From a virus, in IMG/VR virus record IMGVR_UViG_3300049929_000026, positions 64,001-128,000 of that record: a stretch of DNA of 64,000 nucleotides. One strand, 5' to 3'. The notes beneath the pieces are model-generated. The model saw only the letters and a list, made by a program, of their open reading frames with translations. It did no database searches and was not told where the DNA came from. Both the position numbers and the translations under genes were made by a program. Of the stretch, positions 2,471-52,701 are shown piece by piece (within the stretch, counting starts at the first letter, position 1; each line of letters begins with the position of its first letter).

Positions 2471-4033
2471 TCAACCGGGTGTGGTTTCACTCAGCTGAAT
2501 TCCGGTCTGATGCCGGATGTCGATCGTCCTGCCGCTGGCAGTGACGACGAGTCGACTGATGTTGTTCGGATCGATCGAGCAGATGAGCGAGTTGAGCCAC
2601 GTTGGCGCGCCCTGGATCTCGCCGTTGTCCGCGGCCTCTTGGATCTGTGCAGCCGCAAATGGCTTGTAGAGCGACGGCGTCAGTGTGAATGGGGCCACCC
2701 GCTGATTGAAATTGATCGAGCCGTCCGGCATCAGCTGATCGGGCTGCAGCTTGAAACCGACGCCATACTGGACAGCGTCCCGAATCAGCCAGCGGTCGCC
2801 CACTGCGTCGAGGAAGCTGATCCGGTGCGTCTCGGTGGCGCGGAAGTCCGAGATCGTTCCGCCGGAGTCACGTGAGCGCGTAGTGACCGACATCACCATG
2901 AACGAGCCGTATTGGTCGGACGCGACCTCAATCACTCCGTCGGTGACAGCCTGATTGATTTGCGTCGATGTTGGCCAGTCCGCGTTGGAGAACGCCGCCG
3001 GGCACATCCAGTCCTTGCCGCGGTAATTGTCAGGAACGAAGTCGCCCGTCCCTGCTTCCTGGCTCTGATGGATCGCGATGGCGTTGCCGACTAGGTCGGC
3101 CATGTCCCATTCGCCGTTCGTCTGATGGACGATGTGTTGCCGCTCGAAGTTGACCGCGATGCTCAGCGCCGAGACAGCCGAGCCGGTCCCCGTATATGCC
3201 GTGAATGCGCGGCAGCGAAGCCCGGGGTTCGCCTGGCTCTTGGCGCTGACGTGTGTCGCGATGACAGCAAGTGCCGCCGCGGTCCACATCGTGAAACCGT
3301 TGTAGTAGTAGCGAGTATTCGTGAGCGTCGCGAGCGCGGCCGTCATGTTGACCAGCTCGGTCGTGGTGCCATCGACGCCAACCGTGCCGGTGCCCAACCC
3401 CAGTGCCGCACCAGACGAAGTGGAGATGACGTTCTTGCCAGCGTCCGCAATGGTGCGCACACGAATCACGCCTACTGTGCCGTCACCCTGAGATGCGCCC
3501 GCGATCTTAGCCGTGATGGTCACGACTCCAATAGAGCTCGTGGCGGTGACCGGAAGCCAGACCTTCGCGTTGATGCCCAGCACGATGTTTGCGGCGATCG
3601 TCGTCGCCGTGTCAGCGGTGTTGAAGCCCGTGGTGATGACTTCGCCCGCGACGTAGGTCGTAACCTGGCCGGTCGCTGTCGGGTTCGACCCGGAGGTGAA
3701 TGTGATCGTGATCGTGCCAGCCGCCGAGACTGGGCTGCCGCCAGAACTCGCCGCGTAGCAAATACCGATGAGCGTGCCAAGCGTGCTCGCCAGCAGGTGC
3801 CTGCGTAACGCGCGGTGCACCGGGGAACCAACGCCGAACAGCGTGATCGCGTCTGCTTCGCTCGTGATCGGGTACGCCTGATTGACGTTCGCGGTGCCCG
3901 CCGTCGTCTTGGGGCCCATGTACATCGCAGAGCGCGGCCCAGCTGGGGCATTGCTCGGCCCTTGGCCAAAGAGCAATTGCATGGCAGTGAAGGGCGCGCG
4001 GTAGCTGCTCGGATAGCCGACGAAATTGGTCAT
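2471..4033 (-). CDS. contractile tail sheath protein (Mu gpL-like)
   Basis: 520 aa with sheath-like segments ITSEADAITLFGVGS, ADTATTIAANIVLGIN, VVTITAK and CSIDPNNISRL. Confidence 0.85.
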   Translation of the reverse strand: MTNFVGYPSSYRAPFTAMQLLFGQGPSNAPAGPRSAMYMGPKTTAGTANVNQAYPITSEADAITLFGVGSPVHRALRRHLLASTLGTLIGICYAASSGGSPVSAAGTITITFTSGSNPTATGQVTTYVAGEVITTGFNTADTATTIAANIVLGINAKVWLPVTATSSIGVVTITAKIAGASQGDGTVGVIRVRTIADAGKNVISTSSGAALGLGTGTVGVDGTTTELVNMTAALATLTNTRYYYNGFTMWTAAALAVIATHVSAKSQANPGLRCRAFTAYTGTGSAVSALSIAVNFERQHIVHQTNGEWDMADLVGNAIAIHQSQEAGTGDFVPDNYRGKDWMCPAAFSNADWPTSTQINQAVTDGVIEVASDQYGSFMVMSVTTRSRDSGGTISDFRATETHRISFLDAVGDRWLIRDAVQYGVGFKLQPDQLMPDGSINFNQRVAPFTLTPSLYKPFAAAQIQEAADNGEIQGAPTWLNSLICSIDPNNISRLVVTASGRTIDIRHQTGIQLSETTPG

Positions 4034-5705: not shown

Positions 5706-6151
5706 GTGGCTTCAGCGACTGGAGAGATGACCAACGTCTCGTGCAGAGCGTGGTCAGCGTTCCAGGACTTGACCAGGAACAGCGCGCCCGGGTCGGGTAG
5801 GTCCGGACCGATGATCTTGATGTGCAGCGTCTGCCCGGTTGAGACTTCGGCTTTCGCCGCCGCCCATGGGTTTCCGCCGCCAGCGAATGGCGCCGTGATG
5901 GGTCCGATCTTCATCGAACCTTTACCGAGTCCGCTCAGGGCGAGCTCCTCGGTGTTCATCACGCGGATCTTCGGAGATTGCCCGTTGGCCTCGAGGATAG
6001 GGATCAGGTCCTGCGCGCGCGCGCCGCGTCCGGTGTTGTCACCGTTCCACGTGCCAATAACGATCCAAGCTTGATACGGGCGCAGACCCATCTGTCCTGG
6101 AATTGCTCTGGCTGCAAAACAGATGGCCTTGAAGCCGTCGGCGGCGCTCAT
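5702..6151 (-). CDS. putative head-closure protein
   Basis: Synteny; 4-nt overlap with the next gene. Confidence 0.45.
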   Translation of the reverse strand: MSAADGFKAICFAARAIPGQMGLRPYQAWIVIGTWNGDNTGRGARAQDLIPILEANGQSPKIRVMNTEELALSGLGKGSMKIGPITAPFAGGGNPWAAAKAEVSTGQTLHIKIIGPDLPDPGALFLVKSWNADHALHETLVISPVAEAT

Positions 6152-16863: not shown

Positions 16864-17168
16864 CTTCCCGGACGCTTATGGCACTCGGCGCAGAGATCTA
16901 ACTCCGCATGCTCGGCGAAAGCCTCGTCCCCCACCGCCATCCGTATCTGTTGCTCTATCAGAGCTCGACCGCGAGCCTTCACATCGATCGCGTCACGGAG
17001 CCTCTCGTTGATTACGGCTCGATTGGATTTCTGGCGTTTGGTCGGTTGAGTACTCGGGGCATCGGATGCAGCGAGTACTCGTTCGGCGGCGGCTGGGGTG
17101 AGCCACCGCCTTATTTGACCTCGTTCGGCGTCACTTAGGCGCGCCTTCCCGGTCTCCCCCCCCCTCAC
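16812..17168 (-). CDS. hypothetical protein with C-terminal Cys cluster
   Basis: 4-nt overlap with the upstream gene; G9 run right after the start codon. Confidence 0.4.
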   Translation of the reverse strand: MRGGETGKARLSDAERGQIRRWLTPAAAERVLAASDAPSTQPTKRQKSNRAVINERLRDAIDVKARGRALIEQQIRMAVGDEAFAEHAELDLCAECHKRPGRCKCPDGVDSLLPSWPG

Positions 17169-17623
17169 GACTCACTCACCGGAAAACAGATGTCGCGCTT
17201 CCAGAGCTCGAAAGCGTACAAGGCGTCCGACTTCTGCAGCCGCCCGGCCGAAGTCGCCTGCCAGTTCTGCCCGTCGTCGATCACGCAGGTCAGGCACAAG
17301 AGCTCGCCGCGCTTGGCCCGCTCGAGCAGGACTTCGAGGTGCTGGATGATGACCGCCGAGTACTCTGACCGGCTGGTGTCGATGGCGCGGAGGTTTGTGG
17401 GCGCTCGGCCGGACTCTCTGACCTCGACCGGCTGTCCCAGGACGTCCGTGGCGGCTAGGTCCGGCGGCTCGGTCTCGCGCGCTACCAGCTCGGTCGGCGT
17501 CTCACCGCAGATCACGCACGGAAACTCGAATCCCGGCACCTGCCCGATGCTTTTCTCCTCGCAGCCCGGCTTCCGGTGCTTCTCGCAGCGCCAGTTCCGG
17601 CGGACGAGCTTGATCTCGGTCAT
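17165..17623 (-). CDS. hypothetical protein (N-terminal Zn-binding-like motif)
   Basis: CEKH...C...CVICG; translationally coupled. Confidence 0.5.
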   Translation of the reverse strand: MTEIKLVRRNWRCEKHRKPGCEEKSIGQVPGFEFPCVICGETPTELVARETEPPDLAATDVLGQPVEVRESGRAPTNLRAIDTSRSEYSAVIIQHLEVLLERAKRGELLCLTCVIDDGQNWQATSAGRLQKSDALYAFELWKRDICFPVSES

Positions 17624-18555
17624 TCCGCCGCCTGGGCCGCCGCCAGACCGCGTTCCATCGCCTCAGCGAAGGCAGCCTCGCTCATCCGCATCAGCACCCC
17701 GCCACGCCGCCCCTGGCCGCCCTGGCGCGGCTCAGTGGTCAACTGACAACGTGCGCGTCCGGTGCGGTCCTGAAAGCTCCTGAGGCCCGGCACGGCGCGC
17801 TTGGTCGCGAACCAGATGTCGTGCGCCTCGGCGTCCGCGGCGTGCGCTCGGTTCAGCGCCTCCCGAACTAGCTTCGCCCGGCGCGCCTGCTCGGACCGGT
17901 TGATCTTCCCCTTCCGGACTGGGGCGGGCTCGACGCAGGCGACGAACAGCTGGGCCGCGTCGTCGCAGAGTTCAAAGGCCAGCGCCGCGTAAACTCCGAG
18001 CCCCTCGTTGGTGTTCGTATTGCTACCCGTCCGAGTTGGGTCGTGTTGGCCCACGCGGCCGTCTGAGCCCTCAACATACCGATCCTTGGCTCCGAAGCCT
18101 TGGTCAGCCCGATACTGTGCTCTAGGGGCGCTGTAGCGCTTGCAGAGGGTGTTCTGGGTGGCGGCCGGCACAAGTCGCCAGGCTGCCATCAGGTGCCGAT
18201 GCAGCTCGATCTCGCCGATTCCGAGTACGCCTACGCCTAGCTGCATATCGGTAAAATGGTGCTTGTAGCTCCCTGCGCCGTCGAGATTGCCGGTCCCCCC
18301 AACCGAGCCGCGCTCAATTTGAGAGACCACGCCGGCCAGGGTGCCGCTTGCGCCCATCGCGGCGTCACCGCAAAGCAGAAACCACGCGAGTTGGTCGTCG
18401 TAAGACCCGTCTCGGGCTGGCCGAGGTCGGCGGTCTTTTGGAAGCTCGCGCGGCGACTCGACGGCCACGCGCGGCACGAGGGTCAATGTAGGCGCTAGGA
18501 CAACCGACTCACTGGTTACCGGGATCAACTCGGTAACCGCTTGCAATTCGGACAT
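17620..18555 (-). CDS. hypothetical protein
   Basis: 311-aa ORF with AAGGAG RBS. Confidence 0.6.
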   Translation of the reverse strand: MSELQAVTELIPVTSESVVLAPTLTLVPRVAVESPRELPKDRRPRPARDGSYDDQLAWFLLCGDAAMGASGTLAGVVSQIERGSVGGTGNLDGAGSYKHHFTDMQLGVGVLGIGEIELHRHLMAAWRLVPAATQNTLCKRYSAPRAQYRADQGFGAKDRYVEGSDGRVGQHDPTRTGSNTNTNEGLGVYAALAFELCDDAAQLFVACVEPAPVRKGKINRSEQARRAKLVREALNRAHAADAEAHDIWFATKRAVPGLRSFQDRTGRARCQLTTEPRQGGQGRRGGVLMRMSEAAFAEAMERGLAAAQAAE

Positions 18556-18603
18556 ATTTGAGACACTCCTTGGGGGGTCAGGGCGGTTCCAGGAGTGCTG
18601 AGA

Positions 18604-18641
18604 CCCCGAGGCGAGCTGTGGCGGCTGGCTTCGGGGTTTTG
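18604..18641. terminator. GC-rich hairpin with T-tail on + strand
   Basis: ACCCCGAGGC...GCTTCGGGGT followed by TTT; intergenic. It could instead be a structured leader on the minus strand. Confidence 0.4.
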
Positions 18642-18646
18642 TTCGT

Positions 18647-18919
18647 TCAACTGCTAAGCAAACTCTCCTGCTCAGCGGCCCGCAGTTGTCTGAGCTGCGC
18701 TTCGATCCGCTGAGAATCCACGGTTGGGACGCCGTCGCGCGCCCAAATGCTCCAGATCCTCTCTGCTTGGCAGAGGCTCTCGCTGTCGCCGGTCGCAGCC
18801 ATTACGCAGCACCTATCGATGACCCAGAGCACGTCGTTCGGCTCTAACCCGCCTATGTCAGAATCAGTGCCAGCTTGCGACATTGTCTTCAGAAACATCC
18901 CGCGGATCCTTTCCGTCAT
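18647..18919 (-). CDS. small hypothetical protein
   Basis: 90-aa ORF starting 31 nt after the third (partial) CRISPR-like repeat. Confidence 0.45.
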   Translation of the reverse strand: MTERIRGMFLKTMSQAGTDSDIGGLEPNDVLWVIDRCCVMAATGDSESLCQAERIWSIWARDGVPTVDSQRIEAQLRQLRAAEQESLLSS

Positions 18920-18950
18920 CAGTACAGCGCCTAGTACAACGCCTTCCCGA

Positions 18951-18976
18951 CTCTCAACACCTGACTCTTTTTCTCT
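18951..18976 (-). repeat. degenerate third CRISPR repeat
   Basis: 18951-18966 CTCTCAACACCTGACT is identical to 16 nt of the array repeat, followed by CTTTTTCTCT (repeat has TTTCTCT). Confidence 0.7.
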
Positions 18977-19057
18977 TCGTCAGCGGTGGTCACGTGACAA
19001 CACGTTACACTGCCTTGCGGCGGTTTGCCACTGTGAGGCGCTGGCGAGCGCCACAAA

Positions 19058-19633
19058 TCAAGCGGCTTTTGCTTTTCCAACCTGCTTCTGCAGCCGGGCG
19101 TTCTCCCGCTTCAGCGCCGTCACCTCCTTCGTGAGCGCCGCCACCTCGGTCTTTAGCCGGGCATTTTCCAGCTCTAAGCTGCCCTGCCGCTGGACGGCCC
19201 GGGTTGACGGAGCCAATGGGGCTTTCTTCTCGATCACGCCGTTGACGATACGTCGCACCTCCTTGGGGCTCGGCGCGCAGTGGTTTGCGTTGATGAACTG
19301 ATCGAGCGACGCCTCGACGAGCTGAACATTCGCCGTGTCAGCGGTGGCGCCTGGCGCCAGAAGGGCATGGCAAGACTCCACTCCAAGCGCCCGCACGCGA
19401 TCCACGCCGTAGATCTCGATCGCCTGGATCACGTTCCCATAACGGTTGAGCCCCATCGCGTTTGGGAACTCCCGCTGCAGGAAGTCACTGAACATCGGCG
19501 TCTCTGGCGTCTTCCAGATGCCCTGCGTCTCTACTGCTCGAAGCTCGAGGAAGAGATCAACTCCGCTCTCCAGCCAGTTAGCTAGGAGCGTACGGATTTT
19601 GGATACGGCTTGTTCATATGCTTGATTGCTCAT
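19058..19633 (-). CDS. hypothetical protein with C-terminal coiled coil, located between CRISPR repeats
   Basis: GGAG RBS at 19642-19639 and ATG at 19633, immediately after the repeat; 191 aa. Confidence 0.7.
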   Translation of the reverse strand: MSNQAYEQAVSKIRTLLANWLESGVDLFLELRAVETQGIWKTPETPMFSDFLQREFPNAMGLNRYGNVIQAIEIYGVDRVRALGVESCHALLAPGATADTANVQLVEASLDQFINANHCAPSPKEVRRIVNGVIEKKAPLAPSTRAVQRQGSLELENARLKTEVAALTKEVTALKRENARLQKQVGKAKAA

Positions 19634-19643
19634 TTTAACTCCA

Positions 19644-19750
19644 CTCTCAACACCTGACTTTTCTCTGATCCGTTCCGAGAGCTGGATTCGCACAGCTGAG
19701 GACGGGTGCCCAACCTCTCAACACCTGACTTCTCTCTGATCCGTTCCGAG
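19644..19750 (-). CRISPR. mini CRISPR array: two 36-nt repeats and one 35-nt spacer
   Basis: 19644-19679 and 19715-19750 differ at one position. Minus-strand repeat CTCGGAACGGATCAGAGA(A/G)AAGTCAGGTGTTGAGAG; spacer GTTGGGCACCCGTCCTCAGCTGTGCGAATCCAGCT. Starts 54 nt after the Cas12f-like gene. Confidence 0.8.
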
Positions 19751-19804
19751 CGGTCATCAAGACCGCCAGCAAATTCGCGCTCTTGCCGTCCGCTTTGCGA
19801 GCGG

Positions 19805-21430
19805 TCACTCCGCGGCCCCTGCTTCTGGGGCCAGAGAATCCGAACCGCTCGCAGTCTTGACGCCCTTCTTCCCGAGTCCGCGCTTCTTCGCGCCGGCCTC
19901 CTGCATCTTCGCTAGCGCGTGTTTCTTGCCCACATCGAGTAGATGATTCGCGCATGCGATACCATCCACCGATGCCTTCAATTGGCATTGCTCGCAACGA
20001 AACCAGGCCGGCACTCGCACAACCCGTTTCCAGACCTCGCCGTCGATGCGTTTGAACTCAACGACGTTGTCGCGGTGCTCAACGTTCGCTTCCGATGTGT
20101 GCGAGCAAGCCGGACATCGCTGCGAGACGAAGCGCGCGTTCTTGTAGTGCGTCCGGATCCCCACCTTGGTGAGCGCCCGATCGATCGTCTGCTGGCTTTC
20201 GTAGTAAGGCCACTGATGGATCAGTCGCTTCAGCTCGCTGTGGGCCTGTCCCTCGGTCTGCTTCTCGAAGTTCTCCCGGATCCCGGTCATGTTCTCCATA
20301 AACACGTCGCTAACTCCATGAAGCGTGCACCAGCGAGCGAAGTCCGCCGCGCGCTGCCGGATCCGGTCCTTGACTCGCCGCGCTTCTCGATCGCCGATGG
20401 CAGTCAGCGGGAGTTCGCGACGCTTCACGCCGCGTCCGCGGGACCCGCTGCCATGGGCACGCATTCCCTTTGCGATGCGGCGTCTCTGCGCGGCATATTG
20501 CTCACGCATCGCGATGATGTCAGTCCCCGGATCTTCCCACGTTGTGCCGTCCTCGGACATCGCCAGCATGAACACGTTGATCCCGAAGTTGCAGGCTACC
20601 GCATTGCCTGCCTTGTAGCCTTCGGCTCGGTGCTGAGACCACGAGATGAGCGCGAACCATTTACGCTTTCGCTCGTCGAACTTGATCCCGACCTTTCCAA
20701 GCTTGATCGACGCCTTCTCTTCGAGTTCGAACAGAGCTCGGTCCCTAGCCGCGCGCGCTGCCTTCATTACCTTGTCAGTGGCGTCTTTCGGGAGCGGTTT
20801 CTTGGCGGATCGCTCGAGCTCCACCACGCCTGCTCGGTTGCCCGCTCCACCCACCAGTTGCCTCCAAAGAACCACGGCGTTGCCGCCGCAAGGTGCAACA
20901 ACGAGAGACGTTGCACCTTTGCCGGTGCCAAAGAAAGGGAAGGTGAGCCGGGCATCGTCAGGTGTCCCTGAGACTTCGCAGTTGCGTCCCTCCGAGAAGA
21001 AGGACTTGCCGGACCCTTCGAACGTCGGCACGCCCGCGCGACCAGCCAGCAGATCCTTGAGATGCTGCCCAGCGAAGCGCGAAAGTATGTGGTCCGAGGT
21101 TTCGCTACACAGAACGTCCCCGGGCGGGACGTGAGCCGCTGCGTAGTCTTTGCCTGACTTCTTCAGCATGTACGCGCATCGTCGCTCCATGCCGCGAGCC
21201 CAATGGAATCGCAGCCGCTTACGGACATCGTTCTGCCAGGTCGTGCTTGGTTTCTGCTTCTCCGATATCGCCTCGAGTTGGGAAATGGCGCCAGGGTATA
21301 CGTCACGTAGCGAGAGATTCAGCGCCATCGGCAGTGTCTCGCGAAGGGCTCGCATTCGCGCTCCGAGTTCGCTCCAGCTACCATTTGCTGGCTTGACGAT
21401 CTCAACCTTGAGCGTCCCTGCCAGCTTCAT
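19805..21430 (-). CDS. cas12f: Cas12f1-like (type V) effector, predicted nuclease-dead
   Basis: N-terminus KVEIVKP...WSELG..MRAL...ALN, bridge region GSRGRGVKRRELPL, RuvC-II FMENMTGIRE, WPYYESQQ, VSQRCPAC, FRCEQC and RuvC-III VDGIACAN parallel AsCas12f1 as I recall it. RuvC-I reads ACNFG instead of GIDLG. Confidence 0.8.
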   Translation of the reverse strand: MKLAGTLKVEIVKPANGSWSELGARMRALRETLPMALNLSLRDVYPGAISQLEAISEKQKPSTTWQNDVRKRLRFHWARGMERRCAYMLKKSGKDYAAAHVPPGDVLCSETSDHILSRFAGQHLKDLLAGRAGVPTFEGSGKSFFSEGRNCEVSGTPDDARLTFPFFGTGKGATSLVVAPCGGNAVVLWRQLVGGAGNRAGVVELERSAKKPLPKDATDKVMKAARAARDRALFELEEKASIKLGKVGIKFDERKRKWFALISWSQHRAEGYKAGNAVACNFGINVFMLAMSEDGTTWEDPGTDIIAMREQYAAQRRRIAKGMRAHGSGSRGRGVKRRELPLTAIGDREARRVKDRIRQRAADFARWCTLHGVSDVFMENMTGIRENFEKQTEGQAHSELKRLIHQWPYYESQQTIDRALTKVGIRTHYKNARFVSQRCPACSHTSEANVEHRDNVVEFKRIDGEVWKRVVRVPAWFRCEQCQLKASVDGIACANHLLDVGKKHALAKMQEAGAKKRGLGKKGVKTASGSDSLAPEAGAAE

Positions 21431-21439
21431 TGAAAATCC

Positions 21440-21700
21440 TCCAAGTGATTCAAGGCAACCATCGACCGGCTAGTCAGGTGTTGACCATGCGACAAGCGCG
21501 TGGTCCTGCGGCCGAAGCCACTCAGCGAGTACGAAGACTCGCTATCTCGACGGTAGATCGCCGGTATTACCGGTCGTTGGCTGCCTTCAATCACTGTTCC
21601 AAAATAGAACCGACTCATGTAGACCTGCTCCTGTCCGTTTACGCGGACCATGCCCGCGGTCGTGTGATAGCGACGCGCGGGCAACTTCAATCGCACCCCC
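21440..21700 (-). ncRNA. putative tracrRNA (boundaries approximate)
   Basis: Minus strand of 21472-21484 reads TCAACACCTGACT, perfectly complementary to AGTCAGGTGTTGA near the repeat 3' end; upstream of the effector gene. Confidence 0.6.
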
Positions 21701-21934
21701 CGGGCTGGCTGTCAAGTGACCACCAAAGCCCGGCGCCTCTCGTTCCTGCTTGTCGCTACTGACGTGATTCCAGTGATTACGCGTCTTTGCGGCGTCCCGG
21801 TCGCTCTCCGGGCGCCCCGGAGTTGCCTGGGCGCAATGTTCGCTTTAGCCTAAACAACAGGTCCAAGCACGTCGGCGCAAGCCGAAGGACGCCTCCGCCA
21901 CGGGGTAACGCTGCCTAGCCCGGTAGGGCACGCA

Positions 21935-22513
21935 ATGTTCAACTTAGACAAATTCGCCAATGCGGTGCTGCTCGTGTTGAACGAGAGTCCGTCGCCGCCT
22001 GGGTTGACGGTGCTTCTGAAGGTGCTGTTTCGGTCGGACTTCGCACACTATCAGGAGCATTTGCGTTCGATCACCGGAGTGGAGTACGTGGCACTCGAGC
22101 GCGGACCTGTTCCCCACGACTACCGCTCGCTTCTTCAGAAGCTAGCAAGCCGGGGCGACGTTGTGGCCGAACGTGTCGACGTTGCCTCGGGCTACAAGCC
22201 CATGGAGTGCTACCGCGCGCTCCGCCGTCCGGATCTCGCGGCCTTCGATCCGAGCGAACTTGCGGTGCTACGCGCGGTCATTGCGGCGGACGCGGGCAAA
22301 ACGGGAAAGCAGCTGAGCGACGAGACACATGCCGAACTCCCTTGGCGGGCTGTCTGGCGCGACGGGGAAGGCGAATCCGCCCAGATCCCCTATGCCCTCT
22401 CTCGCTGGGAAGAGAACCGTTGCAATGCGGCGGACCTCACTCAAGCCGCAAACGAGCTGCAGCGAACCGATGTGCAGGCGGTGATTGCGCAACTTGTTCG
22501 ACCAACTGGCTAG
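21935..22513 (+). CDS. Panacea (DUF4065/SocA-like) antitoxin-domain protein
   Basis: LLKVLFRSDFAHY...SITG..YVALERGPVP...LSDETH..PW motifs. Confidence 0.8.
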   Translation: MFNLDKFANAVLLVLNESPSPPGLTVLLKVLFRSDFAHYQEHLRSITGVEYVALERGPVPHDYRSLLQKLASRGDVVAERVDVASGYKPMECYRALRRPDLAAFDPSELAVLRAVIAADAGKTGKQLSDETHAELPWRAVWRDGEGESAQIPYALSRWEENRCNAADLTQAANELQRTDVQAVIAQLVRPTG

Positions 22514-22599
22514 CCAGCAGCCGTGCCGAGACACATGCCACTGGTGCGGCGCTCCGTGCCGTTCGAATCGGATGTTGCCGCGCTGCGAATGCGATATGC

Positions 22600-22883
22600 G
22601 GCGACCCGGCGATTGCCGAGGCGCACCTGCCGCTGATTCACTTGGTGTTCTCGAATTTCAAGGCGTGGCTGCAAGGGACTCACCATTCTGTTTCTCCGAA
22701 GCATTTGCAGGCCTATGCCAACGAATACGTGTTCCGGTTCAATCGGCGGTTCTACCCGCTCAACGGGTTCCGATCGCTGTTGGGGCTCGGCGCGCTGCGC
22801 GAGGCGCCGACGTACGATGAGCTGTACTCGGATGCGTGCGTACATCCCGTCGCAGTTGGTCCGTGGGAGCTAACCGGATGAGC
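22600..22883 (+). pseudogene. IS1595-family transposase C-terminal remnant with probable terminal repeat
   Basis: HLVFSNFKAWLQGTHHSVSPKHLQAYANEYVFRFNRR; N-terminal and catalytic parts absent; ends in TAACCGGATGAGC. Confidence 0.8.
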
Positions 22884-23004
22884 ATGGAAATAACATCGGT
22901 CTGCGGCTTGCCGTTGTCACCGGCAGAGTCAGCGCGGACTTCGAGCTCCACGGGGAGCAGCATGAGACGCTACAGGATACGCTGCCGAGAAAAGTGAGAA
23001 GGAA

Positions 23005-23238: not shown

Positions 23239-23394
23239 GCCGCGCGCGACGTCAGCAGAAGCGCCGTGCCCGCGCTTGGCAGCTCGAGGTGAGGGACACC
23301 GTGTACGGGTGGCGCGCCGCGTGGTTGATGGGTGATCGAGAGCGCTTCAAGGTGCATTGCTACTCGCGGGTTGAAAGGCGGTTCGATCGAGTGG

Positions 23395-23964
23395 TCACGT
23401 GACCACCTTGATCCCGTTCGTCGCCGCTTGCGATCTGTCTATCGGCAGCCGCCCATGGCACGAGTTTTCTCCGGGCCTTGGGAAGTTCAACGCCGCAAAC
23501 TCGCCGAAATACTCGCGAGCCGCCGCGTCGTATGCCCGGGCAGCGTCCTCCTCATCCGTGAAGTACCCAAGGTGTTTTGGGACGTGTGTTTTCTGGTAGT
23601 ACTGGCCGCCAGAGATCATGGCTCGCCATTTCTTGCCGCGCTTGTACCAAGCAACACCTTTGAATCTAGACGTGCCAGTTGTACGAGCGCGCATATTGAA
23701 GTGATTTTTGGCAGTCGTCGTCGCTCGCAGATTTGTGCGGCGATTATTCAGCCCATCGCCGTCTCGGTGATCTACCTCCTCTGCGTCGGACAGGATCACT
23801 CGATGCATTAGCAACAGCTTCTGTTCACCGTTTTCGCAATGAAGCCTGCGGGCGTACCAAGTGTTCCGATGCTGCCAAGCGTGCCAAGTCTTTCCCGCAA
23901 AGAGGTGCGCGTCAGCCTCGTCTACGATCGCCTTCATTCCGTTGCTAAGAATGATCTCCGTCAT
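23395..23964 (-). CDS. HNH-AP2 homing endonuclease
   Basis: MHRVI...VDHRDGDGLNNRRTNLR plus AP2 domain SRFKGV...HLGYFTDEEDAARAYD. Confidence 0.9.
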   Translation of the reverse strand: MTEIILSNGMKAIVDEADAHLFAGKTWHAWQHRNTWYARRLHCENGEQKLLLMHRVILSDAEEVDHRDGDGLNNRRTNLRATTTAKNHFNMRARTTGTSRFKGVAWYKRGKKWRAMISGGQYYQKTHVPKHLGYFTDEEDAARAYDAAAREYFGEFAALNFPRPGENSCHGRLPIDRSQAATNGIKVVT

Positions 23965-24001: not shown

Positions 24002-26812
24002 CTAAGCGGACCGACGAATCGACTTCTTGTCGAGGTATGCCTGCGCGATTTTCTTCATTCGGTCCAGGTCGACTTCTTGAGGCAGATCGTTGCCGACTTT
24101 CAGATCTCGTACGCCTTCAAGCTGCGCGCGCTTGATTCCCAAAATGTCGCTGATCACCGGATCGGATCCCTCGTCGGCGAGTAGGAAATAGGAGAACACG
24201 GGAAGCAGCTGGCCATCGCGGTGAATCCTGGTGTCGTTCTGCTCATGGATCCCAGGGCTATAGTCGAGCTCAGCGGACACGACGTTATTGCAGACGTGCT
24301 GAAGCCCGTCGAGCCCCTCACCGGAACGCAGGCTCATGATCAGGATCTTGGTTTCGCCTGCGATAAAGCGCCGCTTGGACTCCTCCTTCTCTTTGACCGA
24401 TTCGAGTCCCGTGTAGAAAGCGGGAGCGAAGTCCTTCAGCTTATCGCGCAGCACGTCATACACGGCGTGATGCCACGCGAAGCACACAACTGACTCGCCG
24501 CCCTCCACCAGCATCCTCAGGAACTCCGCCACATACGGCGCCTTCGCCAGCCCCGTAGATTGGCGCAACAGATTGTCGAGCTTGCCTGCGGCCTGCATGC
24601 GCGCACCCTTCGACATCTCACCCTTCGCGAGAATCGTGCGCGCCAAAGCCGTGGCTTGACCATCGACAGCATCGAGCACCTTTTGATCGAAATCGATGTA
24701 GTGCGGGATCCGCGTAAGCGCGGGCAACTGACGTCCGACGTCTTCCTTCGTGCGCCGAATCATCAATCCGGAATCGCGCAGGTACGAGCCCATCGCCTCA
24801 GGTGATTTGAGTTTCAGTTTGCCGGGCTTGTCGGCGTCTCCGGTGCAGTGCTCCTGCTTGAATTCGCTGAGCAGTCCGAGCGCGCCAGGGCGAATGAATT
24901 CCATCACGTTCCAGAGCTCGCCGCCGAGATTTAGAAATGGAGTTCCGGAGAGGCCGATTCGGAACTGAACCCGGCGGGATATTTTCATCGCGGCCTTGCC
25001 CTTATTGGTGTCCTCGCCATTTCTAAATTCGTGAACCTCGTCATAGACGACGCTCCCTAACTTCACGAGTTGTGCCTGTCCGGCGAGCTTTTCGTTTCCA
25101 GAGAGATAGTCGCCCCATCCTGGGATCTTCGAATAGCTCGTGATGATCACATCAGGCAGAACGCCGCCGCATTGTTTCGCGATGTCATATGGACGCGTTC
25201 CTCTCAAAATGTGCGTCGACATGCGCGGCAAGAACTTGCGAAGCTCCGCTTGCCACTGCGATGGCAGGGCAGTCTTCGTCACCACGAGCGCGGGGCGTGT
25301 TCGCGGGTCGGTCAAAGCACAGGCGGCAGAGATCGTGTTGTGCGTCGCGAGATACCCGTCTGTCAGATATAGATGACGTTTTGAGCTGACCCGGATACAT
25401 TGGACTGGTTTAATCCCCGCAGGTTCGACTGTTTTGATAGCGCGGGCCATCAACGGCATACGCCATCGCTCAGCCTTGCGTTTGAGAGCGAATGGGCAAA
25501 TCGGTATACGGATATGTACCGTATATGAGAGACGCCCCTGACGGCGCTCCCCAAGATGTTCGTAATTAGTGTGTCGGCTGTACAACGACGCGAACCCACC
25601 TAATGTACCAACAAGATCTTGTACGCCCTCCGCCAATGGCAAAGAGGTCGATGTGAACGTGACGGTACCGCTCGTTCCACATGTGCCATCCGTGTCCATC
25701 AGCCCCTTGAGTAGAGCCAAACGATCGCTCACTGCGGCGCACAGGTACTCATGCGGGATAGTCTTTTCCCACGAGCGCTTCCCAGCCAGCCCTAACGCGC
25801 GCAACGCTTCTATCAGCGCGTTTTTTTGTCCACCGCGATTCCCGCTGGTAATGTTGTAGTCGAAATTGGACCCGCAAACGGGATGTAGCCATAGCCCGGG
25901 CGGAAGCGCAGATATCACATGATCAAGAATTTCTTGATCAGCAGATGATATTGCAACTCCTGCCTGCTTTAGATGCCCATCTCCCAAGAGAACCCCGAGC
26001 AGATACGCTGGTATCGGCAATGGGGGCGCCGGGGCAAACGTGACCGGCTTGGATATTGGCAGGAAGTACTTCGAGTTGACCCTCCCTTTGCCCATGTCGG
26101 TATTCAAGGACTTGCGGATCTCTGAGAGCGGCAATGTCCTGCTCTTACCGGTATATCGGTCTTGCGCAGTGTGGACGGTCCATAGATGCTCATCGCAGCA
26201 TTCTGCGGATGCTCCGTCGGCTGTTGTAACACGAAACACGGGGCGATCTCCTTGTGGAAATATCGCTTCGACGAATGCCGTGCCGCCGTCCGGATCGCTG
26301 ATTTCATCGCCCACGGCGAGCTCGCCCATTTTCCTCCAACCATATGGAGTGAGAACCACTGCGTCTAATGGCTGAGCCTTGCCCAGGCCCATCTGGTCGC
26401 CGATGAGCACCCCACCTGTCCGCAGCGCGAGCTCCGCTGCCACCTTCTGGTAGTCGCGTGGCGGCAACGCGAGTTTGAATTCTTGCGGTTTACGCGCTGG
26501 GTCCCCGATAATTTGGTGGACCGCAAATTCCGCTTCGCGGTGTTCATTCGCGCGTCGCGCAAGCCGGATCTCGCTCTCCTTATCGACGTAGTCGAACGGG
26601 AACCGTGATTGAAACCACTCGATGTCCCGTGACACCTCAGGCGTGTCCATGATGCAGATGATCTCGCGCGTCTTTCCCGCTTGGTATCGCGGCTTCGACA
26701 TTCGCGGGAACACGCGACGCATGCGCAATAACACGTGTGGATCGCACTCAATGATCCAAGAACCATGGTGGTACTTTAGCGTCCCGTAGGTTTTGATCTC
26801 TTCTTTGCTCAC
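24002..26812 (-). CDS. SNF2-family helicase with LAGLIDADG intein
   Basis: DQMGLGK|intein|T, DEVH, LSGTP, MIRRTK, GEGLDGLQ and RIHRDGQ. Confidence 0.9.
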   Translation of the reverse strand: MSKEEIKTYGTLKYHHGSWIIECDPHVLLRMRRVFPRMSKPRYQAGKTREIICIMDTPEVSRDIEWFQSRFPFDYVDKESEIRLARRANEHREAEFAVHQIIGDPARKPQEFKLALPPRDYQKVAAELALRTGGVLIGDQMGLGKAQPLDAVVLTPYGWRKMGELAVGDEISDPDGGTAFVEAIFPQGDRPVFRVTTADGASAECCDEHLWTVHTAQDRYTGKSRTLPLSEIRKSLNTDMGKGRVNSKYFLPISKPVTFAPAPPLPIPAYLLGVLLGDGHLKQAGVAISSADQEILDHVISALPPGLWLHPVCGSNFDYNITSGNRGGQKNALIEALRALGLAGKRSWEKTIPHEYLCAAVSDRLALLKGLMDTDGTCGTSGTVTFTSTSLPLAEGVQDLVGTLGGFASLYSRHTNYEHLGERRQGRLSYTVHIRIPICPFALKRKAERWRMPLMARAIKTVEPAGIKPVQCIRVSSKRHLYLTDGYLATHNTISAACALTDPRTRPALVVTKTALPSQWQAELRKFLPRMSTHILRGTRPYDIAKQCGGVLPDVIITSYSKIPGWGDYLSGNEKLAGQAQLVKLGSVVYDEVHEFRNGEDTNKGKAAMKISRRVQFRIGLSGTPFLNLGGELWNVMEFIRPGALGLLSEFKQEHCTGDADKPGKLKLKSPEAMGSYLRDSGLMIRRTKEDVGRQLPALTRIPHYIDFDQKVLDAVDGQATALARTILAKGEMSKGARMQAAGKLDNLLRQSTGLAKAPYVAEFLRMLVEGGESVVCFAWHHAVYDVLRDKLKDFAPAFYTGLESVKEKEESKRRFIAGETKILIMSLRSGEGLDGLQHVCNNVVSAELDYSPGIHEQNDTRIHRDGQLLPVFSYFLLADEGSDPVISDILGIKRAQLEGVRDLKVGNDLPQEVDLDRMKKIAQAYLDKKSIRRSA
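25337..26377 (-). mobile_element. intein (347 aa, class 3 signature) with LAGLIDADG endonuclease
   Basis: Starts AQPLDA; block B HLW; block F VQCIRV; ends ATHN/T; LLGVLLGDG and LLKGLMDTDG motifs. Confidence 0.85.
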
Positions 26813-47561: not shown

Positions 47562-47839
47562 GGTGGTGTTCTTCCTCTGTATCTCGGGTGGTCACGTGAC
47601 AACGGTGGAGGCTATACGTAAGTGCCTCCGTCCTGCTAGCTCGCATTTGCGTTTTTCAAGTCGTGCAATCGCGGCATCGAGAGCGCGCTGAGCAACCCGG
47701 TAGCGGTCCCGCGCCGCCCAACGTTTCCAACCGTTGCGTGGTTCGTACGTCGAGATCAGCGCTTGCTCGGCGCGATCGAATTCTTGCTCGGCGAGACGCA
47801 GGGCGCGCATCTCTGGGGTGAGTTGGGCGAGCATTCCGA

Positions 47840-51161: not shown

Positions 51162-52701
51162 TTAGTGACTCCAGTGGTCACGTGACAACCATTGTCACAG
51201 CGTCGAAAAGTGTAGCGAAATCGACTCGTCACTGGTATTTACCTTCTGTGCCGCTGAAGACGGCGCTTGGCCGCGCGCTCGAGTCGAACCGAGCAGCGCG
51301 GCCGTTTTCATTTATCAGATCGCGTTGTCAGCTGACAACCGTTCCGATCCAAAATCGCCACGGGCGTCAATGCCGCCCCGAAATCTGCTGAAGCAGGTCA
51401 GCAACCCGGTGCCGGGCGTCGCCGTCCGGCAGCTCCATGTCGTAAATCTCGGCACCGTTCTTGCCGATTCGGATCCAGATGCTCAGCCCGGCGACCGAGA
51501 CAAAGCAAGACCGACGGTCCATCATTTCGGCGTGGAGCCAATCGTCGACCACCACCTCGTCGAAACGGCCGGCGGCGGCTGTCTCCCCGCGGTCCTCGAT
51601 GGCGAGCGTCCCTTCGGTCTGGAATCGCCACTTGGCACCCGGGTGGCGGGCGAGATCACGGGAGCGGGCTGCGCGGTCTAAGGCAGGTTTCGGGTTTGGA
51701 GAAGGCAACCGACCGGCTAGTTCGAGGCAGCGCGGGCAGGTCGGGTGGGTTCCTAGTGGTGCAACCGACAGTGGCGCAGCGCGAGGCTTTGGTCGACGGG
51801 GCGCCTGTCCGACATAAAGGTGTGTTCGGTGCTTCCCGCAGACCGTGTAGTGACCGGATGAGGTGAGGTGGGTGGTGGTTCCGGCGCGGTTCAAGTAGTC
51901 ACCTCATCGGTCCGAACGCCTTGGTAGGTTTCAATCTCCGCCGATTCGAAATATCGGCGCAGGGCATTGCACTGCACGCGCGGGCGCTCCGGGTCTTTTA
52001 CCTTTCACGCGCGGCTCGCCGGGAAGCAATGGCGGGTGCACCTCCATGTGCGCTTCGTACGTCTCTCCACAGTACAGACAGTGCCCCTCTTTCCATGTTC
52101 GCTCGTGCGTTTCGATTAGCGATGCCGCGCGCTTGGCTTCGATCACGATCCGCTTGAGGCGAGCCTTGTATTCGCCGAGCTTGGCGGGCTTGGGCTCGTC
52201 TTCAATCTGCTCGGCCTCCTCGCGAATCTGCGTGACCTTGTCGTAGAGCAAGGTCATCACCTCGGCACGTGAGAGCTGGGTGACCGAGCTCACGGCCGCT
52301 CCGACTTCGAGCGCGAAGGCACCAGCCCCGCCATCCAATTTGCCGTCGCCTCGACCGTTCCGCTCGCAAGGAGCTGCTCCCGGTACTCGCCCGGTACCAA
52401 TGCCTCGCTCTCATTGGTGAGTTCGGTAAACGCGCCTTCTGGAAAGGTATCCGGGGGCAGACGCCCCATTCGCGACAACGAATCTTCCAGATCCGATAAA
52501 GCCTCCGGGGCGTCAGCCTGGAACTGGGCTATCACCTCAGAAAGCGGTGCAAATTTGGGGAGCACGTCCTCCACCATCGCCAGTACGCCATCAATGCGAA
52601 GAGCGAGGCCTTTCACGTGGGAGTGAACGAGTTGCAGCTTGGCTTCGGCGGCCTCGGCTCGCTTCTTCCAGGCTTTTGACTCGTCGCACCCGCAAACTGG
52701 T

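Follow-up and report, generated by a model that had tools for sequence, protein, structure and literature searches.

A probable second gene of a Cas12f-derived phage module among its CRISPR repeats

A protein gene that sits among the repeats of a CRISPR array, with repeats directly ahead of two start codons, raises the question whether it is a passenger in the array or part of the system to which the array belongs. Such a gene, of 191 amino acids (aa), was found in a 64,000-nucleotide (nt) stretch of soil phage DNA, bases 64001-128000 of the 137,618-base-pair (bp) virus record IMGVR_UViG_3300049929_000026, which is 86% complete. This whole stretch is called the window, and coordinates are window positions unless a locus is named. 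All elements of the module are read on the minus strand, in the order anti-repeat, 541-aa effector, repeat 1, 35-nt spacer, repeat 2, 191-aa gene, palindrome, degenerate repeat 3, 31 nt, and a 90-aa open reading frame (ORF90). The initial annotation of this DNA had described the repeats, the embedded 191-aa gene, the palindrome, the third repeat with its 16-nt tail, the 31-nt segment and ORF90, and every item was found correct at its place.

We give a probability of about 0.6 to the following reading. The phage carries a type V module derived from Cas12f; the stretch in question is its distal half, and the 191-aa gene is the conserved second gene of this module, not a passenger in an array. 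Two repeats lie at the junction of the two genes and one tail-only unit lies behind the second gene, and the module is a DNA binder without normal cutting.

The effector-partner pair and its arrays

Single-protein searches for related loci found none; profile-based searches with the effector alignment A1 (described below) of viral, metagenome and genome collections yielded the 12 loci of the family. We found a homologue of the 191-aa protein (p191, the partner) directly downstream of the effector in 10 of them (tblastn, E 1.8e-56 to 9.9e-21), and the remaining two, L013 and L014, stop at a contig edge, so that linkage holds in 10/10 testable loci. As L010 duplicates L011, and L013 belongs to one element with L012, the independent relatives with a partner are 9/9. 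The distant L006, with an effector of 28% identity, also has a partner homologue behind the effector (26% identity in the partner alignment A2). Four loci with partial effector matches of 22-30% (L007, L018, L019, and L020) had no partner match and were left out of the family counts.

The start codon of the partner overlaps the stop codon of the effector (ATGA) in L004, L005, L009, L010, L011, and L017, and the gap between the two genes is 17 nt in L003. The pairwise identities of effectors and partners were correlated, with a Pearson coefficient of 0.79 and a Spearman coefficient of 0.66 (10 loci, 45 pairs that are not independent). In 15 homologues, the N-terminus aligned at the ATG at 19633, not at the upstream GTG at 19693. 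Among 401 genomes of the phylum of G001, the p191 profile matched one only, the locus-bearing G001 itself, and a narrower partner alignment (A4) used as a query found no related loci in viral contigs. The initial annotation had suggested a possible partnership between the embedded protein and the effector and named gene neighbourhood as a check; linkage in every testable relative, the overlap of start and stop codons in six loci and the co-divergence of the two proteins all support this suggestion. Comparison of the loci indicates that the 191-aa gene is a conserved second gene of the module, not a passenger within the array.

Repeat maps placed an array between effector and partner in the window, L008, L016, L012, and L006, after the partner in L003, L005, L017, and L012, and upstream of the effector in L012/L013 and L017. 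The genes are coupled in L003, L005, L004/L010, L009, and L017. An effector tree of 11 loci required at least 3 changes between the states "array between" and "genes coupled"; in it, L008, L016 and the window, which all have the "between" state, formed one group (support 100/98), and the basal in-group lineages L003, L005, and L004/L010 have the coupled layout. In L012, a spacer of the junction array and a spacer of the downstream array are identical at 23/24 positions, that is, on both sides of the partner gene, and other spacers are duplicated inside the arrays of L003 and L017. Searches for Cas1 (PF01867) and Cas2 (PF09827) gave no match in the 137,618-bp record at its 86% completeness, and the positive controls were detected. 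Given the moved arrays, the duplicated spacers and the missing Cas1 and Cas2, arrays in this family seem to grow and relocate by local duplication.

That a mobile event put the 191-aa gene into a once continuous array, one of the options raised in the initial annotation, would account for the repeats that flank it on both sides and for the near-identical spacers on either side of the partner in L012. However, all testable relatives have the partner behind the effector, among them the six with stop-codon overlap and no repeat between the genes, the partner co-diverges with the effector, and the coupled layout is held by the basal lineages. We regard such an insertion as extremely improbable; the comparative data and the tree indicate instead that arrays moved around a pre-existing effector-partner pair. 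Since arrays seem to relocate around the pair, the layout of the window is thus not that of a gene dropped into an array. Judged from sequence, it is a small array that now occupies the junction of effector and partner, together with a single unit behind the partner, where arrays usually lie, the smallest "array-partner-array" layout. The features of the locus are listed in Table 1; repeats 1 and 2 differ at 1/36 positions.

Table 1. Features of the module in the window, in the order of the minus strand
Feature	Position	Strand	Description
Anti-repeat (tracrRNA-like)	21472..21487	-	reads TGGTCAACACCTGACT; 13 nt can pair with the repeat tail; effector ATG 42 nt downstream
541-aa Cas12f/TnpB-like effector	19805..21430	-	Asn281 at RuvC-I; Glu379, Asp489 and zinc-finger cysteines retained
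CRISPR repeat 1	19715..19750	-	36 nt
Sole true spacer	19680..19714	-	35 nt
CRISPR repeat 2, last full repeat	19644..19679	-	36 nt; ends 10 nt before the partner ATG
Pseudo-spacer TGGAGTTAAA	19643-19634	-	partner Shine-Dalgarno GGAG at 19642-19639, 5 nt ahead of the start
191-aa partner gene	19058..19633	-	ATG at 19633, ORF end 19058; predicted helical N-terminal domain (residues 1-137) and C-terminal leucine zipper
Palindrome copy TGTCACGTGACCACC	18985..18999	.	core KGTCANNTGACM; 64 nt past the partner stop
Degenerate third repeat	18951..18986	-	exact 16-nt 3' tail at 18966-18951, the sole conserved part
31-nt segment after the third tail	18920..18950	-	candidate solo guide; doubles as 5' leader of ORF90
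90-aa ORF (ORF90)	18647..18919	-	ATG at 18919; orphan

Two further features of the arrays were seen in relatives. In L006, the effector ORF ends (5918) within the first CRISPR repeat (5905-5940). Behind the partner in L010 (3263-3480, the same in L011) and in L004 (after 7072), repeats of about 47 nt with a GC hairpin were noted by eye at a period of about 110-140 nt, and these resemble omega-RNA or single-guide arrays more than CRISPR repeats.

Effector active site and partner fold

The effector matched the Pfam models PF07282 (Cas12f1-like_TNB, E 3.7e-5) and PF01385 (OrfB_IS605, E 1e-4), both under the gathering score, and the NCBIfam model guided_TnpB with E 1.5e-21 and 77 bits, below the cut-off of 100; PHROGs likewise placed it in the TnpB/Cas12f family. 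Its best matches among solved structures were AsCas12f chains in the PDB (E 1e-9). Asn281 of the effector aligned with the Asp of GIDLG in the AsCas12f chain, which we take to be the RuvC-I catalytic residue, and one deposited chain has Ala at this place. Among 5.8 billion proteins, 26 relatives other than the query were found, of which the weakest (P0027; 28% identity, 52% coverage) was dropped, so that alignment A1 holds the query and 25 relatives, 26 proteins in all. The RuvC-I residue in A1, in a column counted by hand, was Asn in 21, His in 3, Arg in 1, and Val in 1, and Asp in none. Glu379 was retained in 23/26, and Asp489, the third, RuvC-III Asp, in at least 90%. Since the RuvC-I change extends across the family, it is a family trait and not a sequencing slip.

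In its small size and TnpB-like build, with RuvC and zinc-finger/TNB domains, the effector agrees with type V-F, and an intact RuvC Asp-Glu-Asp triad, also expected of type V-F, is missing. The label "dCas12f" used in the initial annotation is fair as regards the altered RuvC-I site, and the loss of cleavage it implies is a deduction from that site. To judge from the change in the active site, RNA-guided DNA binding without normal cutting is the most likely activity of the whole module. At the C-terminus, the effector ends in AAE in 11/26 members and the partner in AA in 7/15, which may be a shared degradation or docking tag.

For the partner and 14 homologues, Pfam gave coiled-coil matches only, with no helix-turn-helix (HTH) model, no sigma-70 region and no PF02195 (ParB/Srx, CTP-binding); NCBIfam and PHROGs searched with the partner also gave coiled-coil matches only. 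The AlphaFold models, confident at a pLDDT of 89.6 over the full length and 90.3 for residues 1-137, show an all-helical domain followed by one long helix. An exhaustive structural aligner (VIA-align) found 11 chains at Z of at least 5, six of which are ParB-family DNA-binding domains: ParB (6s6h_B, Z 7.1, 112 of 137 residues, root-mean-square deviation 3.7), KorB (Z 6.4/5.9), Spo0J (Z 6.1), and SopB (Z 5.3/5.2). The partner profile found nothing relevant among PDB sequences and 473 related clusters among 1.84 billion representatives. One of the proteins found, P0074 (420 aa), has ParB_N and HTH_ParB domains fused ahead of its p191-like part. From the ESM Atlas came leads only, namely DUF3102, ParB, and a phage MT-A70 cluster, the first two of which point in a similar direction. 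We regard the partner, with moderate confidence, as a predicted dimeric DNA-binding helper that consists of a ParB/KorB-like helical domain and a leucine zipper. A complex prediction for effector and partner scored 0.01; its controls were not run, and it is evidence neither for nor against an interaction. Another protein, P0113 (2559 aa), contains 10 stretches that match the p191 profile.

Repeat tails, the third unit and the start codons

The window has 4 copies of the 16-nt repeat tail with at most 3 mismatches, where 0.51 would be expected, and 0/100 shuffles reached 4. One of the four, at 21487-21472, is inverted and is the anti-repeat, and the exact tail 12-mer occurs at only these 4 places in the whole 137,618-bp record. 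Each anti-repeat pairs perfectly with the tail of its own locus (13 nt in the window, 12 nt in each of L008 and L016), and the two tail positions that differ among these three loci change in step in the anti-repeats, that is, in a compensatory manner. An array and a putative tracrRNA (trans-activating CRISPR RNA) with an anti-repeat, as expected of type V-F, are thus both present at the level of sequence. Tails outnumber full repeat copies in relatives, with 30 vs 14 in L012, 24 vs 10 in L017, and 15 vs 11 in L008. In L008 (3536-3767), the stretch from the anti-repeat (3536-3547) to the effector ATG (3768) contains tail-only copies, of which three (3633, 3667, and 3700) follow one another at 33-34-nt spacing. 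Taken together, the repeats and anti-repeats indicate that the tail is the working part of the repeat.

The tail-only run of L008 has the form of a mini-array of half-repeats that reaches the effector start. When the exact 15-nt tail was searched in viral contigs, 31 loci were found, of which 0/31 encode an effector or partner, and these were rejected as chance matches.

The third repeat agrees with repeat 2 at 24/36 positions, with 16/16 in the tail and 8/20 in the 5' part. All 12 differences fall in the 5' 20 nt, for which the probability would be about 1e-4 if they were placed at random (C(20,12)/C(36,12)). All 13 nt with which the anti-repeat can pair lie inside the 16 nt that were kept. 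The phage sequence was recovered in a second soil study as well, with zero differences over 18772-19305; two soil DNA runs gave identical pieces only, and in run X2 no contig spanned the array. Retaining exactly the nucleotides that pair with the anti-repeat, the third unit most likely still yields a short CRISPR RNA (crRNA), for which we see about even odds. The proposal that it is a solo guide is plausible in that tail-only units recur in relatives and the pairing nucleotides are kept, and it falls short of proof because the palindrome just upstream could end the operon transcript.

The palindrome is a dispersed element. With at most 3 mismatches it has 25 copies against 1.7 expected, which span window positions 8794-57162 (for example 23390-23407, 47587-47604, and 51173-51190), and the Cas12f locus lies between two of them. 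Most of the 17 copies of the core are at gene ends or in intergenic DNA, and about 10 are within about 35 nt of a stop codon, after or overlapping it. It may be a transcript-end hairpin or a protein-binding site.

ORF90, which follows the third unit, has GC contents of 0.56/0.48/0.70 at the three codon positions, typical of coding sequence. No homologue but itself was found among 5.8 billion proteins and none in the related loci, and Pfam, NCBIfam and PHROGs gave no match. No Shine-Dalgarno sequence stands ahead of its first ATG and one (AAAGGA) is present before Met8, which may place the real start codon 21 nt downstream. In L012 and L017, ORFs of the same direction begin about 47-60 nt past the last repeat tail, with the ATG at about 100 nt in L017, and this similar spacing makes the closeness of repeat and ORF90 ordinary.

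The third repeat could be a dead remnant of a former downstream array, with ORF90 close to it by the tight packing of phage genes. The arrays of relatives normally begin right behind the partner, so a relic would be expected there; the spacing in L012 and L017 and a palindrome that may end the operon transcript are also in keeping with this. It fits less well that 12/12 differences lie outside the tail, that the sequence is identical in the second soil study and that tail-only units are recurrent in relatives. We consider a remnant possible though somewhat unlikely, and prefer a third unit that is still used as a short guide.

A stand-alone degenerate repeat beside cas genes, such as the third repeat, is also a mark of cr-like (crRNA-like) RNAs. 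The accessible texts of several reports record regulatory RNAs of this kind (bioRxiv 10.1101/2023.03.03.530964, 10.1101/2023.03.10.532045, PMC9458426), and in the third unit the handle is conserved and the 5' part degenerate, with a small orphan ORF adjoining it. The third repeat and the 31 nt might then form a regulatory RNA of the CreA/CreR kind that steers the effector to a partly matching promoter, either of its own operon or of a toxin-like neighbour such as ORF90. However, in a search for such a promoter at the locus, the candidate guide matched only itself in window 17000-23000 (at most 3 mismatches over the first 14 nt), and no partly complementary promoter was found in the phage DNA. 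In the whole phage it had no other match with at most 3 mismatches over 20 nt; the best had 4 mismatches in 20, and 3/300 shuffled guides reached 3 or fewer. A role of this kind is very unlikely in our view, and a short guide used by the effector itself remains the preferred reading.

The initial annotation had also pointed out that repeats directly precede two start codons, which holds, with repeat 2 ending 10 nt before the partner ATG and the third tail 31 nt before that of ORF90. We found that a repeat or a fragment of one ends within 12 nt of the partner ATG in 4/5 junction-array loci, and that the part of the repeat differs per locus. In the window it is a full repeat with a 10-nt gap. 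In L006 it is a nested 20-nt 5' fragment with a 4-nt gap, and in L008 repeat positions 2-20 (16/19 identical, 12-nt gap), for which 0/500 shuffles were as good. In L012 it is positions 14-25 with a 9-nt gap, for which 12/500 shuffles were as good, and L016 has a 43-nt gap without a fragment. The fragments of L006, L008, and L012 are purine-rich inner parts of the repeat and look like recycled Shine-Dalgarno sequences rather than sites that would pair with the tracrRNA. RNA folds of the junctions were not better than shuffles.

This adjacency might itself be a mechanism, as the initial annotation had allowed. The effector-tracrRNA complex would bind the tail ahead of the partner start (10 nt) and of ORF90 (31 nt), load the ribosome-binding site (RBS) as a pseudo-guide or trigger processing, and translation of the partner would drop as the effector accumulates, giving a feedback on stoichiometry. 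The repeat or fragment within 12 nt of the partner ATG in the window, L006, L008, and L012, the tail-only units that reach the effector start in L008, and a tail beside the RBS of the window that is the anti-repeat-pairing part would all suit such control. The pieces in L006, L008, and L012, however, are purine-rich and stem from the 5' or middle section of the repeat, which would not be matched by the anti-repeat, and L016 has no fragment in its 43-nt gap. Six loci are translationally coupled without any repeat, so the family does not need control of this kind; ORF90 is an orphan, and the folds gave no structure signal. As the fragments differ by locus and six loci have no repeat, translational control by the effector is possible and not leading, and we hold it to be unlikely.

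Broader still is the idea that repeat tails in messenger RNA leaders (those of the partner, ORF90 and the L008 effector) are RNA-level operators captured by the effector-tracrRNA complex, which would set translation or processing, with the ParB-like zipper partner as the dosed output subunit of an RNA-guided silencing complex. We rate this idea as distinctly unlikely. If tails did act in this way, a CRISPR effector would double as a post-transcriptional regulator.

Our preferred explanation is a module that reads, in order, a tracrRNA-like anti-repeat, an effector with Asn at RuvC-I, a mini-array, the 191-aa partner gene and a tail-only repeat unit. Arrays without adaptation genes would spread by local duplication, upstream of the pair, between the genes or after them; in the window, two repeats would have colonised the effector-partner junction and one tail-only unit would be left at the usual array site behind the partner. 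With 10 nt from the end of the junction array to the ATG, the RBS of the partner occupies the place of the terminal repeat's spacer, and the partner would be translated from the same transcript that yields the crRNA. The third unit would give a short crRNA, and the effector would bind DNA by RNA guidance without normal cutting, with the partner as a DNA-binding helper.

Guides, related systems and neighbouring genes

The best non-self match of spacer 1 in the phage is 17/20 at window 54725, at the end of a 111-aa ORF, with a mismatch at guide position 4; 8/300 shuffled guides matched as well, so this site is a weak candidate only. The exact 20-nt spacer had 0 matches in viral contigs. Searches with the guides of relatives against all the DNA of this analysis returned within-array duplicates, identities between L012 and L013, and one 16/16 match. 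In this match, the guide after a lone tail copy in L012/L013 (L012 1290-1313) fits L006 10360-10375, on another phage contig that bears the family, at 16/16 nt (E 0.001 in a small local database), which may reflect inter-phage targeting. Three guides of L012 share the core CGCTCACG-ATCT. An Rfam scan gave no relevant match, and promoter and terminator scans stayed at background level.

Several results weigh against the reading that we prefer. Glu379 and Asp489 are both retained in the effector, and altered RuvC sites may keep activity according to the accessible text of a survey of such proteins (PMC10691335); because of these two points, the effector cannot be called nuclease-dead with certainty. 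The Pfam match to an HTH model that a DNA-binding partner might be expected to give is missing. All fold matches of the partner lie below Z 8, where helical models often match by chance, and four of the 11 top chains are the Rubisco factor Raf1, in the same range (up to Z 6.9); Foldseek with the partner models found nothing at E 0.001 or better. The palindrome between the partner and repeat 3 could stop transcription ahead of repeat 3, and co-transcription, crRNA maturation and use of the third unit are all inferred. No RNA sequencing run that contains the locus was found. No target was found for any of the three guides in the DNA searched. The comparison of layouts covered the loci named above and left out the contigs of the closest relatives, P0002 (76%), P0003 (71%), P0029 (85%), and P0030 (80%).

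Cas12m, Cas12c, Cas12k, and TldR bind DNA under RNA guidance without normal cleavage, for silencing or recruitment, and we know of no binding-only type V or TnpB-derived effector that has been described with a ParB-like or zipper partner interleaved with arrays. Effectors of this binding-only class are also named in PMC10691335 and PMC13472631. The family described here is a good fit to subtype V-U24, compared by published description and not by sequence. The accessible text of the survey gives this subtype one sentence, which names a noncanonical RuvC-I site and an associated HTH-domain protein (Altae-Tran et al., PNAS 2023, PMC10691335). In likeness to this, RuvC-I is noncanonical in 26/26 of our proteins (Asn, His, Arg, or Val). 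A partner accompanies the effector in every testable locus, and its predicted fold may be of the HTH type (ParB/KorB-like, Z 5.2-7.1), with no Pfam HTH match. Arrays on both sides of the partner, tail-only repeats, carriage by phages and a leucine zipper are absent from the account of V-U24 in that text. The literature at hand, with the supplementary material of the V-U24 survey aside, held no account of an array-flanked partner gene in such a system.

The dCas12f-sigmaE systems of Bacteroidota perform RNA-guided transcription with a dead Cas12f and a dedicated partner; as the accessible part of that report states, Cas12f-derived proteins with a disabled cutting site become programmable transcription factors when paired with a sigma factor, and a separate, uncharacterised cluster of array-linked dCas12f exists in bacteria (PMC13472631). 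Half-repeat stages have been proposed for the history of the dCas12f-sigmaE lineage in the available text of another source (PMC10691335). As in those systems, so far as the available text describes them (PMC13472631), the phage module has a Cas12f-derived effector, a RuvC change that is likely to inactivate it, a tightly linked small partner and guides from CRISPR repeats. It differs from them in four respects. Their partner is an operonic extracytoplasmic function (ECF) sigma factor (rpoE), whereas ours has no sigma-70 Pfam match. Their effector has a C-terminal truncation that takes away part of RuvC, whereas ours is of full length, with the zinc finger and the RuvC-III Asp present. They use single guide RNAs and have no CRISPR array, whereas arrays and a separate anti-repeat occur here, and the carriers here are phages and metagenome-assembled genomes of Myxococcota or Gemmatimonadota in place of Bacteroidota.

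With type V-F Cas12f (AsCas12f, PDB 8j12/7wju; Un1Cas12f) the module shares the small size of the effector, the pairing of a tracrRNA anti-repeat with the 3' part of the repeat, and 36-nt repeats. The catalytic RuvC-I Asp is replaced here, in contrast to V-F, and an extra conserved partner gene is present; cas1 and cas2, typical of V-F1, are not found in the phage record. The third unit resembles cr-like RNAs (CreA of CreTA, CreR, crlRNAs) as the accessible texts describe them (bioRxiv 10.1101/2023.03.03.530964, PMC9458426), being an isolated degenerate repeat by cas genes that keeps its handle and has its own short guide. The cases known from these texts are mostly of type I and V-A with active effectors, and no partly matching promoter was found for the third unit.

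If the preferred reading is right, this phage family would be a natural and independent case of RNA-guided binding in which an output or helper subunit takes part, one that has kept true arrays and pairs its effector with a different, uncharacterised partner of ParB/KorB-like domain and zipper. The tail-only units and the interleaving would define a minimal guide unit of a 16-nt handle and about 17-20 nt, and the interleaved arrays would show how arrays evolve without adaptation genes. Should the partner be a silencing or bridging subunit, the module would offer a compact new tool and represent a new phage strategy against hosts or rival phages.

Two neighbouring genes were also noted in the window. 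A SocA/Panacea-domain protein (PF13274, E 3.5e-13) is encoded at 21935-22513 on the plus strand, divergent from the module and adjoining the tracrRNA region. Further away, a 936-aa helicase-like ORF at 24002-26812 on the minus strand contains, as judged by eye, an intein-like insertion in its N-terminal half.

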